DNA of 64,000 nt from Mustelus asterias (lineage: Eukaryota), in the NCBI RefSeq assembly GCF_964213995.1, contig NC_135813.1, forward strand, positions 2,170,001-2,234,000. Direction: 5' to 3'. The notes beneath the pieces are model-generated. The model did not search any database. It was not told where the DNA came from and saw only the letters and a program-made list of their open reading frames with translations. Positions 1,091 through 47,279 of the stretch are shown here, piece by piece. The first letter of the stretch is position 1. Each line of letters begins with the position of its first letter. The position numbers and the translations under genes are program-made.

Positions 1091-2442
1091 CTGAGGGGCA
1101 ACATTGCAAACAGATCAACAAAAACGTACATTTATGTGGCACCCTCAACTGAAAGATCCCACAACGCTTCACAGCAGCAAATATCAAAGTCTGAGTTGCA
1201 AATGATCAGAATGGGTGATGGGCAACTGAGATTAACGCTCGTCTTGCGATGGAGGTCGACAGGTGAAGTGGTTTAGAAGTGAATTTCAGAGTGAAGGACA
1301 TTGATAAAATGCTGTGCAGCTGACTTGGGGACAAAGCTTGGAGTAAAAAACATGAAAATAAAATTGGCTGAGTGACAGGAAATAAAGTTGGTGAACAGTT
1401 GTTTTTCTGACGGGGGAAGGTTTATCAGGGAGTTCCCCAGGTTTCAGTGTTCCCTGCTCTACATAATTACCTCGGCTCGTGTAGGGGGTCACAATATTTG
1501 CAGATGCTATGAAACTTGGTTGTTTTGAGAGCCACAAGGACAGAAGCAAAATACTACAGGTGCTGGAAATCTGAAATAAACAAAATGCTGGATAAACGAG
1601 AGGTGTGGCAGCATGGAGTACATACCACCAGCCTACAGTTGCACCTTATCCAGCCCCTTATTTCAAAGGGGCATAGACATGTTAGTGGGATGGTCCAAGT
1701 GGCAGATGAAATTTAATGCAAAAAAAGTGCAGAGATTCATTTCAGGAGGAAGAATGCAGATAGACGATATAAAACAAAGGGCAAAATACTAAAGAGGTTG
1801 TCACACAGGACCCAGGTGTAGATGTGCAGCTAAGGCACAGTATTCTAGGCTTCATTTATTGGGGCAGTGTACAACACACTAAATGGAACAGAACACCATG
1901 GGGCCTCAGCGGAGTGCAGACAAAAATTCACAAGAATGGTTCCAGGGAGAGGAGCTTTAATTACGTAGTGATTATAGAAACGGAGATCGTTTCCCCTCAG
2001 AGAAGGGAAACAGATTTGGAGATATTCAAAATAGTGAACGGTCTGGAGAGACTAGATGGGGAGAAACTGTTGCCACTGGTGGAAGGACAGACTGAAAATC
2101 ATTGGCAGCGAGAGAAAACAAACACAGCAAGTGATTGGGATCTGGAAGGTGCAGCCTGAAAGTGAGGCCGGTTCAATTGTGGCTTTGGGGAAACTGGACA
2201 GTCATCTAATGGGAATGATTTAGCAGCGCTGAAGGAAAGCAGGGGAATAGCACTGGGTGAACTGCTCCTTCAGACAGTTAGCAGACAGCAGGCCAAATGG
2301 CCTTGTTCTGAACTGGGTAAATTTGATAAAGTGAGTTCATCAAATCAGCCAGTAGCAGGAACATGCAAACATGCCCAAACCACTGTGCAGAGGGGGATCT
2401 TGGGAAGAGATTGATAGTCACACATCACAAAAAGTCCTGAAT

Positions 2443-2585
2443 AAAAGCAAATTACTGCAGATGCTGGAATCTGAAACCAGAAGAGAACATGCTGGAAAAT
2501 CTCTGGTGTGGCAGCATCTGTAAGGGAGCTGACGTTTCAAGTCCAGATGACCCTTTGTCAATGTCAGCTCTTTACTCTCCTTACA
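2443..2585 (-). mobile_element. Penelope-like terminal repeat fragment with partial hammerhead (U3-A8 type) and short inverted tail
   Basis: Highly similar to 25133-25266; TTGACAA-A-GGGTC-ATCTG-GACTT-GAAA-CG-TC-AGCT on minus strand at 2527-2561. Confidence 0.75.
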
Positions 2586-3449: not shown

Positions 3450-3522
3450 TGCATCAGCGATCTTGGTGGGTAATGTCATCCGTTAAGCTCAGTTAGCAAA
3501 TATTCTGTTTACATCATCTGCA
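3450..3522 (-). ncRNA. SNORD24: box C/D snoRNA U24
   Basis: Minus strand TGCAGATGATGTAAACAGAATATTTGCTAACTGA...CCACCAAGATCGCTGATGCA closely matches vertebrate U24; TGCA/TGCA terminal stem; lies in RPL7A intron 3. Confidence 0.95.
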
Positions 3523-14617: not shown

Positions 14618-14752
14618 TAAAAGCAAAATACTGCGGATGCTGGAATCTGAAACAAAAACAGAAAATGCTGGAAAATCTCAGCAGGTCTGACAGCATCTGT
14701 GAAGAGAGAATAGAGCCAACATTTTGAGTCTGGATGACCATTCATCAGAGCT
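14618..14752 (-). mobile_element. Penelope-like terminal repeat with decayed hammerhead
   Basis: AGCT-CTGATGA-A-TGGTC-ATCCA-GACTC-AAAA-TG-TT-GGCT (CpG-decayed core) followed by the family tail. Confidence 0.7.
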
Positions 14753-24358: not shown

Positions 24359-25227
24359 CTATTCTCACTGTAACCCTTTCACTAGTAAGCTTGAACATTG
24401 CCCAGGAGGTGGTGGAGGTAGCAACATTCTGGCAAATGGAGTATAATGTGGGAAAATGTGCAATTGTCCGTTTTGGCAGGGAGAATGAGAGAGAATCTGT
24501 AGTGGGGAATTCTTGTTCAGTAGCTGGAATTCTGTAGGAAGCTAAAGCTGTTTGAATGTATAGCTTTTTGCGAAGGTAAATTAACTTTATTTCTTCAGCG
24601 TAACATCTTAGTTTAAGTTTTATTAGAATAAATTCAAATTAAAACGTACAGAAAGACAAAAGTAGCAATACAATGGACAAAAGACAATTAAAGACAATGA
24701 CCTTGGCTGAAGGGAGATCTCCGATATGCCAAGCAGCATGAAATGACCACCACAGAGCTTTCTCAGAGAACCTCAACTTTCCAGCCTAAAGTCCATGACA
24801 GTTCTACAAGTTTGTGATCTCTGGTACATCCCAGTCATTAACAAGATGTGATTTCATTTATTGTCAATATGTCAATTCAATAAGACAAGATTGAAATAAT
24901 CAATTATAATATGCCACATCAAAATTTCATTAGTTGGTTACAGTTAACGGAAGGCCACCTCTCGGCATGGGTGGTTTTCCCTGTTGCGAGGGAACATTAA
25001 ACTGACTGGTGCTTTAATCTGAGGTGAAGGGCAAGGTTGAGAAGTTGGGGCATTCATGAATAACCTCTGTTGGTATGGGGATTGAACCCACACTGTTGGC
25101 GTAGCTTTGCATCACCATCCAGCCAACTGAACAAAAGCAAATTACTGCAGATGCTGGAATCTGAAACCAAAAGAGAAAATGCTGGAAAATCTCAACAGGT
25201 CTGGCAGCATCTGTAAGGAGAGAAAAG

Positions 25228-25266
25228 AGCTGACGTTTCGAGTCCCGATGACCCTTTGTCAAAGCT
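25228..25266 (-). ncRNA. minimal type I hammerhead ribozyme motif, U3-A8 variant
   Basis: AGCT-TTGACAA-A-GGGTC-ATCGG-GACTC-GAAA-CG-TC-AGCT. Confidence 0.72.
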
Positions 25267-25597
25267 AAAAGGCAGAGAAAGTGGGAGATATTTATACTGC
25301 AGGGGGAGGGAATGAAAGATGAGTCAGAACCGCAGAAACCAGGGAAAAAGGCTGCTAATGGCAGCCCATAGAGAGAATAGAAGGTGTGAATGGCCAAACG
25401 GCAGAGATACTAAAATCAGAGGGTAAACTGTGACAGATGAAGATGTGGGAGGAGGGAATGGGGAGGAGAGAGGTCAAACTTGGAGAAAGAGGAAGCAAAA
25501 GTGGACAAAAGGTAAGGAAAATGGGGATAAAGTAGGAGGAAAGAGCGGGGGAAGAAAAATGAAGAAAGACAATAAAGAAATAAAAGGTAGAGAACAA

Positions 25598-26340
25598 TAT
25601 TACAACATGCTACTGTGCAAAGGGACCTGGGGGTCCTTGTGTAAGAGACGCAAAAACCCAGTCTGCAGGTGCAACAGGTGATCAAGAAGGCAAATGGGAT
25701 GTTGGCCTATATCGCAAGGGGGATAGAATATAAAAGCAGAGATGTCTTGCTGCATCTGTACAGGGCATTGATGAGGCCGCAGCTGGAATACTGTGTGCAG
25801 TATTTGTCCCCTTATTTGTGGAAGGATATATTGGCCTTGGAGGGAGTGCAGAGAAGGTTCACCAGGTTGATACCAGAGATGAGGGGTGTTGATTATGAGG
25901 AGAGACTGAGCAGATTGGGTTTGTACTCGTTGGAATTTAGAAGGCTGAGGGGGGATCTTATAGAGACCTATAAGATAATGAAGGGGCTGGATAGGGTAGA
26001 GGTGGAGAGATTCTTTCCACTTGGAAAGGAAGCTAGAACTAGAGGGCACAGCCTCAAAATAAAGGGGGGTCAGTTGAGGACAGAGTTGAGGAGGAACTTC
26101 TTCTCTCAGAGGGTGGTGAATCTCTGGAATTCTCTGCCCGCTGAAGTGGTGGAGGCTACCTCGTTGAATATGTTTAAATCACAGATAGATGGGTTCCTGA
26201 TCGGTAAGGGAATTAGGGGTTATAGGGATCAGGCGGGTAAGTGGAACTGATCCACTTCAGATCAGCCATGATCTTATTGAATGGCGGGGCAGGCTCGAGG
26301 GACTAGATGGCCTACTCCTGCTCCTATTTCTTATGTTCTT
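25598..26340 (+). mobile_element. 5'-truncated CR1 LINE inserted in the Penelope element
   Basis: RPQLEYCVQ...RFTRLIP...TRGHSLK...VVNLWNSLP, tail TTCTTATGTTCTT. Confidence 0.92.
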
Positions 26341-28324
26341 AATAAAAAATTAAATAAAATAGAATGAAAACAAAGGGGCTGAGGTGGGGCAGAGCAAATC
26401 ATCTGAAGTTGTTGAATTCGATGTTGAGGCCGGAAGGCTGTAAAGTGCCGAGCCGGAAGATGAGATGCTGTTCCTCCAGTTTGTGTTGAGCTTCACTGGA
26501 ATGTTGCAGCAGGTCAAGGACAGACATGTGGGCATGGGAGCAGGATCGTGTGTTAAAATGGCAGCAACCGGAAGGTCAGGGTCCTGATTGCGCACAGACC
26601 AAAGGTGCTCAGCAAAGCGATCACCCAGTCTACGCTTGGTCTCTCCGACATAGAGGAGGCCACATTGGGAGCAGCGAATGCAATAGACCAAATTGGAAGG
26701 TGCAGGTGAAACACTGCTTAACCTGGAATGAGTGTTTTGGACCTTGGATGGTGAGCATGGAAGAGGTAAAGGGGCAGGTGTTACACCGTCTGTGATTGCA
26801 CGGGAAGGTGCCATGAGTGACGGGAGAGGTGTTGGGTGTAGTGGAGGAGGGGACTAGGTTATCCTGGAGGGAAAGGTCTCTGAGGAACGCTGACAGAGGG
26901 AGTGAAGGGAAGATGTGTTTGGTGGTGGCATCACGCTGGAGTTGGCGAAAATGGCGGAGGATTATACTTTGCATGTGGAGGCTGGTGGGGTGAAATGTGA
27001 GAACATCCTTGTTCTGGGAGGGAGTTGGGGGGGGTGGGTGAGGGTCGCGGCGCGGGAGGTGGACTGCACGCTGCTGAGAGCCTGTTGACAGCTGTAGGTG
27101 GGAATCCACGGTTGAGGGAAAAGGAGCACATATTAGAAGCACCACTTTGGACAGAGGTGAAGGAGCTGAAAGAAAGGGATGGAGTCCTTACAGGATGTGG
27201 GGTGCGAAGATCTGTAGTCCAGATAGCTGTGGGAGTCAGTGGACTTGTAATGGGTATTGGTAGATAGTCTATTGCCAGAAATGGAGACAGAATGGTCAAG
27301 GAAGGGAAGGGAAATGTCTGAGATGGACCAGGTAAAGGCGATGGAGGGGTGGAAACTGGAAGCGAAGTTGATGAATTTTTCGAGATCTGGACAAGAGCAT
27401 GAAGCAGCACCAAAATAGTCATCGATGTATCGGTGAAGGAGTTGTGGGAGGGGACCCGAGTAGGCCTGGAATAAGGAGTGTTCCACATACCCCATAAAAA
27501 GACAAGCGTGTCTAGGACCCCTACGGGTACCCATTGCTACTCCTTTGATTTGGAGAAAGTGGGATGAGTTAAAGGAGAAGTTGTTGAGAGATAGAACGAG
27601 TTCAGCCAGGCGGAGGAGAGTGGTGGTGGTTGGGAATTGTTCAGGCCTCTTTTCAAGAAAGAAGCGAAGATCTCTCAGGTCTGCCTGGTGTGGGATGGAG
27701 GTGCAGAGAGATTGCACATCCATGGTGAATAGGAAGCAGTTAGGGCCTGCGAACTGGAAACTGTCAATATTCCGCATGGTATCAGAGGAATCCCGGATGT
27801 AGGTGGGGAGGGAACAGCCTGCTGCAATGTTCCACTGAAGCTCAACGCAAACTGGAGGAACAGCATCTCATCTTCCAGCTGGACACTTTACAGCCTTCCG
27901 GTCTCAACATCGAATTCAATAACTTCAGATGATTCGCTCGACCCCACCTCTACCCCTTTGTTTTCATTCTATTTTATTTAATTTTTTATTGTTCTTGACC
28001 TTTTATTTCTTTATTGTCTTTCTTCATTTTTCTTCCCCCCCCCTTTCCCCCTACTTTATCTCCATTTTCCTTACCTTTTCTCCCCCTTTGCTTCCCCTTT
28101 CCCCCTTTTTCTAAATTTGACCTCTCTCCCACCCATTCCCCCCCCTCCCCCCACATCTTCATCTGTCACAGTTTACCCTCTGATTTTAGCATCTCTGCCA
28201 TTTCACACCTTCTATTCTCTCTATGGGCTGCCATTCGCAGCCTTTCCCCTGGTTTCTGAGGCTACGACTCATCTTTCAATCCCTCACCCTGCAGTATAAA
28301 TATCTCCCACTTTCTGTGCCTTTT

Positions 28325-28363
28325 AGCTTTGACAAAGGGTCACCTGGACTCGAAACGTCAGCT
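28325..28363 (+). ncRNA. minimal type I hammerhead ribozyme motif, U3-A8 variant
   Basis: AGCT-TTGACAA-A-GGGTC-ACCTG-GACTC-GAAA-CG-TC-AGCT; sense to MED22 pre-mRNA. Confidence 0.72.
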
Positions 28364-29226
28364 CTTTTCTCTCCTTACAGATGCTGCCAGACCCGCTGAG
28401 ATTTTCCAGCCTTTTCTCTTTTGGTGCAGCCGAATGAGTTATACGGAGCATTAGTGACACCACATCGGGAATAAGGATACAATTTTGGTTTCCTTATTTA
28501 AGGAAGGATGTAAATGCATTGGAAGCAGTTCAGTTTACCAGTCTGATACCTGGAATGGGCAGATTGTCTCATTGGAGAGGTTAAGTTGGTATCACCAGAG
28601 TTCAGAAGAGTACAACGTTTGATAAATAAAACAAAAATACATTAGATTACCTATTCACTCCACGATGCCAATCCCAGGTTTCTGCTCTTTCCCCAGGGCC
28701 ATGCAAATTTTTCCCCTTGAAGTATTTATTCAAATTGGTTTTGAAAGTTCCTGTTGAACCTGCTTCCACAGCCCTTTCAAGCAGCACCTTCCAGACCGTC
28801 AGAACTCACTAAAAATTAGCCAATTGCTTTAAACCTGTACCTTCTGGTTTCAGACCATCGTGTCACGGGAACAAATTTCTCCAGATTTACTCGATTTAAA
28901 TCCTTTCATCATTTTGAAACTCTACATTAAATCTCCGCTTAACCTCCACTGCTGTGAGGAGAATAATCACAGCTTCACAAATTTTTCCACAGATGTCGGA
29001 GTAGGAATTTGTTGGGTACTGGAGTAGGGGAGCAGATCAGCGATGATCTGAATGAATGGGGAACAGGATTGAAGAGTTGAACCTGTTGTTCATGTATCCA
29101 CCACCTTGGTTTTCTGGGCTACACCATGAACAAACAGAAACATCTGCGTTTGCGGATTAGTCAGAGATTTGATGCGAAGTTGTGAAGATGCTGGTCCTAA
29201 ATTTTCACCAGAATCTTGTTTTTCAG

Positions 29227-31339: not shown

Positions 31340-31535
31340 CAGAAACAGAAAATGCTGCAAATTCTTGGCAGGTCTGACAGCATCTGTGAAAAGAGAACAG
31401 AGCTCATGTTTCGAGTCTGGGTGACCCTTCATCAGAGTCATCCCGACTTGATACGTTAGCTCAGTTCACTGCTTGAGATTTTCCAGCATTTTCTGTTTTC
31501 GTTTCAGATTCCAGCATCCGCAGTATTTTGCTTTC
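31340..31535. mobile_element. Penelope-type inverted terminal-repeat pair with hammerhead core (minus, 31401-31437)
   Basis: CTGATGA-A-GGGTC-ACCCA-GACTC-GAAA-CA-TG-AGCT; flanking arms are reverse complements. Confidence 0.7.
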
Positions 31536-47080: not shown

Positions 47081-47279
47081 TCTCACAACACCAGGTTAAA
47101 GTCCAACAGGTTTATTTGGTAGCAAATACCATAAGCTTTCGGAGCACTGCTCCTTCATCAGATGGAGCAGCGCTCCGAAAGCTTATGGTATTTGCTACCA
47201 AATAAACCTGTTGGACTTTAACCTGGTGTTGTGAGACTTCTTACCGTGTTCACCCCAGTCCAACGCCGGCATCTCCACA
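47081..47279. mobile_element. Penelope-type palindromic insertion with 13-bp TSD
   Basis: ~74-bp inverted arms 47080-47153 / 47164-47237; TGAAGAATGCAGG at 47068-47080 and 47280-47292. Confidence 0.85.
47129..47165 (-). ncRNA. minimal type I hammerhead ribozyme motif (canonical core)
   Basis: CCAT-CTGATGA-A-GGAGC-AGT-GCTCC-GAAA-GC-TT-ATGG, stems I and II perfectly paired, palindromic stem III. Confidence 0.8.

Follow-up and report, generated by a model that had tools for sequence, protein, structure and literature searches.

A hammerhead core with U3-A8, probably a compensatory exchange, marks a subfamily of Penelope-like elements in the shark Mustelus asterias

The window analyzed here, a 64,000-nt stretch of the Mustelus asterias genome (contig NC_135813.1, positions 2,170,001 to 2,234,000), contains a Penelope-like element (PLE) whose two terminal repeats each carry a minimal hammerhead ribozyme with U3-A8 at the core positions 3 and 8, where related copies in the same window carry C3-G8. 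The locus raises the question whether this exchange is a compensatory change by which a catalytic fold was kept, as the original prediction proposed when it took a double substitution fixed in one subfamily to indicate selection for self-cleavage, or whether it came to prevail for another reason.

The element lies between coding exons of MED22, close to RPL7A, with its coding strand antisense to MED22. The following parts were recognized (positions of the window):

25133-28425, minus strand: one 5'-truncated, broken PLE of the U3-A8 subfamily (subfamily A, see below), lying in a MED22 intron and bearing its 5' repeat in inverted orientation
27818-28425, plus strand: inverted 5' pseudo-LTR with the end of the endonuclease region, the UTR, the hammerhead and the part downstream of it (repeat alignment)
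25166-26513, minus strand: 3' pseudo-LTR, interrupted by a LINE insert (repeat alignment)
25133-25165, minus strand: one-sided "tail" extension of about 33 nt, typical of PLEs and common to the copies at 2437 and 14619
25600-26340, plus strand: later insert of a multicopy LINE 3' fragment, which we take to be CR1/L2-like (repeat comparison; no Pfam match)
27133-27815, minus strand: frameshifted remnant of the reverse transcriptase (Pfam RVT_1, E 9e-4)
26630-27187, minus strand: frame with the reverse transcriptase thumb and a CX4CX2C zinc-finger linker (ORF reading)
26350-26853, minus strand: frameshifted remnant of a GIY-YIG endonuclease (Pfam E 1.3e-3, below the Pfam cut-off)
25118-25131, plus strand: weak candidate for a decayed target-site duplication (by eye, 10 of its 14 bases are shared with 28425-28438)

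Reverse transcriptase (RT), CX4CX2C linker, GIY-YIG domain and PLE repeat layout bear out the predicted Penelope lineage. The layout of RT, zinc-finger linker, C-terminal GIY-YIG, pseudo-LTRs and tail is described as defining the endonuclease-positive (EN+) PLEs, the linker being the mark of Neptune/Nematis (PMC8557442). In the shark element a single ORF combines RT and C-terminal GIY-YIG (the latter below the Pfam cut-off, the frame being shifted at 25133-28425), a CX2-5CxxC linker lies between RT and endonuclease, and the pseudo-LTRs come with an inverted 5' copy and a one-sided tail in the range of 30-40 nt, which is missing from the inverted repeat. The CX4CX2C motif is also present in the 732-aa open frame of a genomic relative, which matches RVT_1 and, weakly, GIY-YIG, and which is most similar, among named proteins, to those of sharks and rays (60-66%). 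By layout and linker we assign the element to the Neptune/Nematis type. Fish Neptune-clade EN+ PLEs are described with this set of features too: RT, a zinc-finger linker, GIY-YIG at the C-terminus, a 5' repeat in inverted orientation, the tail and a minimal hammerhead (PMC8557442, PMC4209133). A non-LTR retrozyme, characterized in a 2026 bioRxiv retrozyme preprint by non-coding tandem hammerhead units, was considered and rejected, the element being coding-derived with inverted repeats. The two repeats match each other at 91.9% over 173 nt and at 88.4% over 447 nt, and the best other RT copies are 80-86% alike to the element's RT at the protein level, from which we conclude that the copy at 25133-28425 is old and dead. 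Among 108 sampled copies, 31 have an inverted duplicate at most 120 nt upstream, so fold-back stubs are common in the family of the element.

The hammerhead motifs of this family in the window are:

28325-28363, plus strand: minimal type I hammerhead with GUC triplet and a palindromic ACGU replacing stem III, sense to the MED22 pre-mRNA; U3 is 28329, A8 is 28334, and the predicted cut is 3' of 28359
25228-25266, minus strand: second minimal hammerhead with U3-A8 (motif reading); U3 is 25262, A8 is 25257, and the predicted cut is 3' of 25232
2437-2561, minus strand: short copy of the U3-A8 subfamily (motif at 2527-2561) in which the 5' arm of stem I is missing, located in an RPL7A intron beside SNORD36
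14619-14752, minus strand: short copy of the sister subfamily B with C3-G8 and a damaged core (motif at 14714-14752; motif reading and tree)
31343-31437, minus strand: short C3-G8 copy with a damaged cleavage triplet (motif at 31401-31437), in a MED22 intron

Reading of the motifs confirmed U3-A8 in both terminal repeats. From 5' to 3', the motif consists of a stem I arm, U3-U4-G5-A6-C7-A8-A9, a bulged A, a 5-bp stem II, GAAA, CG, U16.1-C17 and the second stem I arm. It thus has the core of a minimal hammerhead (N3-UGA-N7-N8-A, GAAA, UH and a Watson-Crick pair 3-8) as well as its architecture (stems I and II, a bulge before stem II, G10.1-C11.1 and a palindrome in place of stem III). The third repeat that had been predicted, 2527-2561, does belong to the U3-A8 subfamily, but it lies on the minus strand and carries G10.1-U11.1; its stem I, with the 5' arm missing, is broken, and a small inversion pairs the cut site away. 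The two sister repeats reading CTGATGA are C3-G8 as stated, but proved to be damaged copies of a different subfamily (G12A and G10.1U at 14714-14752; G17 together with a changed 16.2 at 31401-31437), and their stems are not fully the same, nine further marker columns differing, including position 17 and the pair 1.1-2.1. A minimal-hammerhead descriptor gave 25 matches in 664 kb of genome stretches versus none in three shuffles, and the exact U3-C7-A8 pattern had 4,520 genome matches versus 0 for its reversed control, so the motif is not a chance occurrence. An unrelated minimal-hammerhead repeat family, with C3-G8 and a copy at 47129-47165 (minus strand), is locally more abundant, with 172 matches in the DNA stretches examined. 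Its states at positions 3 and 8 were 31 C3-G8 and one C3-A8 (n = 32), and no second U3-A8 family was found in the stretches examined by descriptor.

Nine linked markers divide the copies into subfamily A (U3-A8, GUC triplet, pair U2.1-A1.1) and subfamily B (C3-G8, GUU, U2.1-G1.1), a split that is partly circular because the markers were derived from the U3-A8 and C3-G8 sets themselves. The majority sequences of A and B differ at 17 of 142 columns. In a sample drawn by coordinates (1.464 Mb), all 13 A copies with both sites had U3-A8; the 15 B copies comprised 11 C-G, two C-A and two C-C, with U3 in none. Thirty loci anchored on the RT yielded 26 cores, 25 of them U3-A8 and one U3-G8. In a tree with positions 3, 7 and 8 masked (119 rows, about 106 repeat columns, seven short or duplicate rows omitted), all 20 U3-A8 rows fell in A, with a branch support of 90/93 from a rough and unsettled bootstrap; all 30 C3-G8 rows fell in B, and the mixed states were scattered. 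The predicted fixation of the double substitution in one subfamily is upheld by these 13 copies and 20 rows. Motifs of an older type are mostly C3-G8 with GUU, and 15 such copies group outside A and B in the tree; the first 100 of the 208 listed, scored by eye, were 77 C3-G8, 11 U3-G8, 8 C3-A8 and 4 U3-A8. By our estimate, A copies mutated at two sites would account for about the four matches that combine U3-A8 with the older triplet. Six of the 11 U3-G8 motifs, nearly identical to one another, lie within 1 Mb (C6:39139081-40057224), probably as one segmental or tandem duplication. On these sequences U3-A8 is read as the derived state that marks subfamily A, B and the older relatives having kept C3-G8, a polarity that rests on about 106 repeat columns and on a root assumed to lie among the older-type group. 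If the root does lie there, U3-A8 and GUC would have arisen once, on the A branch.

Exact patterns with fixed flanks were counted over the 3.68-Gb genome, which gives lower bounds for the size of the family. With any state at positions 3 and 8 there were 7,256 matches, of which 4,619 were U3-A8 (by subtraction; the 4,520 with C7 were counted directly), 1,799 C3-G8, 678 C3-A8 and 160 U3-G8. The odds ratio for the association of positions 3 and 8 is 77 in this 2x2 table, the entries of which are not independent evidence, as only one origin of U3-A8 is seen. Using markers outside positions 3, 7 and 8, 5 of 30 sampled C3-A8 copies and 14 of 30 U3-G8 copies could be assigned to A. Extrapolation gives about 113 C3-A8 and 75 U3-G8 copies within A, versus 121 copies of a dead-core control (A6G). 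Mixed states at the rate of the control point to decay after insertion, with no intermediate master visible; a C3-A8 or U3-G8 master subfamily was ruled out, the mixed states being scattered tips. The genome-wide motif and covariation check that had been proposed thus came out in favor of positions 3 and 8 not varying independently. As to the remaining states, we infer that most C3-A8 copies are B copies with a decayed C7-G8 CpG, and the CTGATGA copies (C3-T7-G8) are probably the mirror product of CpG decay from a C7-G8 master. Censuses of ribozymes based on CUGANGA undercount the family by more than half, since 4,619 of the 7,256 matches are U3-A8. The prediction that standard searches would miss this lineage therefore holds for the strict CUGANGA string. 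A scan of the window with the Rfam covariance models found no hammerhead at E values up to 5, the C3-G8 minimal motifs being missed likewise, so that escaping detection is not peculiar to U3-A8.

Subfamily A keeps C7, which fits a change of G8 to A by CpG deamination, with C3U before or after it; A8 likely derives from CpG decay of the C7-G8 core. Positions 3 and 8 show less than 3% other letters in contig depth. The CpGs 11.1-12 and 15.2-16.2 are kept in the majority sequence and decayed in 6-36% of contig depth, and stem pairs covary between the subfamilies (U-A to C-G in stem I; A-U, G-U and G-C in stem II). Subfamily A was found in read runs of five organisms, one of which is perhaps the species of the window itself. 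Taken together, the pattern at positions 3 and 8, the covariation of the stems and the retained CpGs make it likely that the active fold has been under purifying selection. As only one event is involved, selection is likely and not proven: the self-cleavage part of the original prediction goes further than one double change on one branch, with one site a hypermutable CpG, can carry. The A branch has a length of about 0.08 per site, from which we estimate a prior chance of about 5% for C3U following a CpG-driven A8. The ribozyme might instead have been dispensable in A, with A8 produced by CpG decay, U3 by a transition unconnected to it, and both fixed by neutral hitch-hiking through one founding master. 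The single event in the tree and the 17 columns separating A from B fit such a course, as do the absence of starts at the cut site in A (0 of 31, see below), the unimpaired in vitro insertion of an anole PLE with catalytic mutations (PMC11167929) and the success of Naiad PLEs without canonical hammerheads (PMC8557442), as these two sources describe them. However, in the majority sequence of A the remaining nine bases of the core are intact, as are the two stems, the palindrome and the two hypermutable CpGs, and the same swap is reported to recur in Schistosoma PLEs (PMC4209133) and in other hammerheads (PMC3088659). We consider neutral fixation unlikely, and prefer the compensatory reading.

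The context of the motif in the transcript was analyzed from putative promoters and from the 5' ends of copies. Two TATA boxes are relevant:

28295-28302, plus strand: TATA box, predicted promoter, with its first T 30 nt upstream of stem I base 1
25289-25296, minus strand: TATA box of the 3' repeat with the same 30-nt spacing (sequence reading)

Among 86 copies examined, 25 have TATAAA within 45 nt of stem I base 1, and in 23 of these it lies exactly 30 nt before that base; the spacing is found in both A and B despite differing spacers. Of copies that start between -5 and +40, 16 of 31 in A and 22 of 43 in B begin at positions 0-4. In 286, 204, 378 and 326 contigs of four runs, and in 17 of a fifth, a loose end was present at 28325 with flanks that are unrelated; two of the runs also had a second accumulation at 28327. 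The simplest reading is that transcription starts at the first base of the ribozyme and that uncut RNA is reverse-transcribed from an internal start. Alternatively, the pile at 28325 could partly reflect a splice acceptor located 2 nt downstream. For comparison, an intron of Drosophila Penelope is described as ending at helix I (PMC4209133), putative TATA boxes are reported in rotifer PLE repeats (PMC3846280), and Drosophila Penelope is reported to have a TATA-less internal promoter (PMC2377424).

No copies starting at the cut site (positions 35-37) were found among the 31 sampled in A (upper 95% bound 11%) or the 43 in B. The loose ends were read from the best-supported rows only (861 further rows), a reading compatible with a cut-site footprint of a few percent. 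Neither these ends nor the starts of the sampled copies gave evidence of self-cleavage in A. In one branch of the unrelated C3-G8 family, 4 of 31 copies start exactly at the predicted cut. A cut-site footprint does not track the 3-8 pair, as B is without one too, and the samples are too small to deny A one. Minimal PLE hammerheads are reported to cut poorly in vitro (PMC4209133); for other hammerheads, in vitro activity with U3-A8 has been reported (PMC3088659). In the anole element, as described, the hammerhead cuts only with protein and needs the 3-8 pair, C3G/G8C restoring it, and uncut templates are used in reverse transcription in vitro (PMC11167929). For the shark motif, predicted folding favored an inactive form, both in the monomer (-9.8, z -0.9), where G5-A6-C7 pair with the cleavage triplet, and in the dimer (-23.2, the double hammerhead reaching -14.9). 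The absence of stem III implies that the motif would depend on a second one with which it pairs via ACGU.

Catalytic hammerheads characteristically have the 3-8 pair, G12 and an NUH triplet. Their presence counts against the possibility that an active-like fold was selected for a role other than cutting, for example to bind protein or to shield the 5' end of the transcript, and so do the shift of the triplet towards the usual GUC and the C3G/G8C rescue reported for the anole element (PMC11167929). Such a role would agree with copies deriving from uncut templates, with the motif at the predicted start site and with the dependence of the anole motif on the protein of its element (PMC11167929); on balance we regard it as improbable.

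The explanation that we favor, and hold to be probable, is that U3-A8 replaced C3-G8 as a compensatory change that kept a dimer- or protein-assisted cutting, while the copy at 25133-28425 is dead and unlikely to cut. In a core with a C7-G8 CpG, G8 would have become A by methyl-CpG deamination and C3U would have restored the pair, in either order, with GUU changing to GUC on the same branch. The TATA box would set the start of transcription at stem I base 1, and a lone 5' hammerhead without stem III would stay uncut. Reverse transcription would begin about 100-145 nt downstream and run off the uncut 5' end, leaving many short copies of hammerhead plus tail, and cutting would require two motifs to pair via the ACGU palindrome of each, a situation provided by a transcript of the form repeat-ORF-repeat. 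A more far-reaching version, which we advance only tentatively, combines an independent vertebrate origin of U3-A8 (CpG deamination with compensation and a GUU-to-GUC gain), a promoter that places the hammerhead at the first base of a capped RNA, a ribozyme that acts as a dimer- or protein-gated remover of the capped 5' end, and A and B as a natural matched pair. If true, this pair would allow the crossing of a fitness valley by a catalytic core to be studied.

U3-A8 as a variant is already in print. About 1,300 Schistosoma mansoni Cercyon PLE hammerheads are described with it, together with a descriptor built for that core, and a Schistosoma minimal hammerhead was assayed (Cervera and De la Pena, 2014; PMC4209133). 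By that description, the shark motif shares with Cercyon the core swap, the minimal type I form, the bulged base before stem II, the palindromic 15.2-16.2, and the position in a pseudo-LTR with mostly solo copies; it differs in its vertebrate host, in its at least 4,600 exact-pattern copies, in the homogeneity of its subfamily, whose C3-G8 sister and outgroup share its genome, and in the CpG route. Natural U3-A8 hammerheads were published in 2011, their in vitro activity being cited to Przybilski and Hammann (2007); they have the same 3-8 covariation but, as presented there, are not PLE minimal motifs without stem III (Perreault et al., 2011; PMC3088659). The Anolis carolinensis Poseidon element PAc, as described, likewise has a hammerhead in the pseudo-LTR, a tail, an internal RT start and an uncut template, whereas it is C3-G8 and of the Penelope/Poseidon clade, unlike the shark element with its Neptune/Nematis CX4CX2C linker (Frangieh et al., 2024; PMC11167929). 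The open-access literature yielded no printed vertebrate or elasmobranch case of U3-A8, though supplements may hold some; the 2026 retrozyme preprint sampled one chondrichthyan. What is new is a vertebrate case that is polarized, present in high copy number and matched by a C3-G8 sister, so that the gain is one more well polarized case and the observation on the start site, not new chemistry. That a core pair was exchanged but retained in a lineage which went on to make thousands of copies is an indirect sign that the catalytic fold matters to the element; A and B provide ready natural constructs.

Lastly, the setting of the locus in its host genes was considered. The motif at 28325-28363 is intact and sense to MED22, and co-option of the copy at 25133-28425 to cut or regulate the MED22 pre-mRNA would take advantage of this. 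Yet that intron holds no sense partner motif and the other two nearby copies are antisense, the motif lies on one side of a 447-nt inverted repeat and would be sequestered by pairing with the other side, and the element is frameshifted and interrupted; we judge co-option highly improbable. The repeat arms (25166-25599 and 27987-28425) form a long inverted repeat in the MED22 intron, a possible substrate for dsRNA formation or editing, and the sense arm (27987-28425) contains pyrimidine tracts with AG that are possible cryptic acceptors. RPL7A and MED22 are divergently arranged, presumably the arrangement of the surfeit cluster. Two SNORD36 and one SNORD24 lie in RPL7A introns (490-559, 2619-2697 and 3450-3522, minus strand), and the short copy at 2437-2561, sense to RPL7A, is located about 58 nt 3' of the SNORD36 at 2619-2697 in the same intron.
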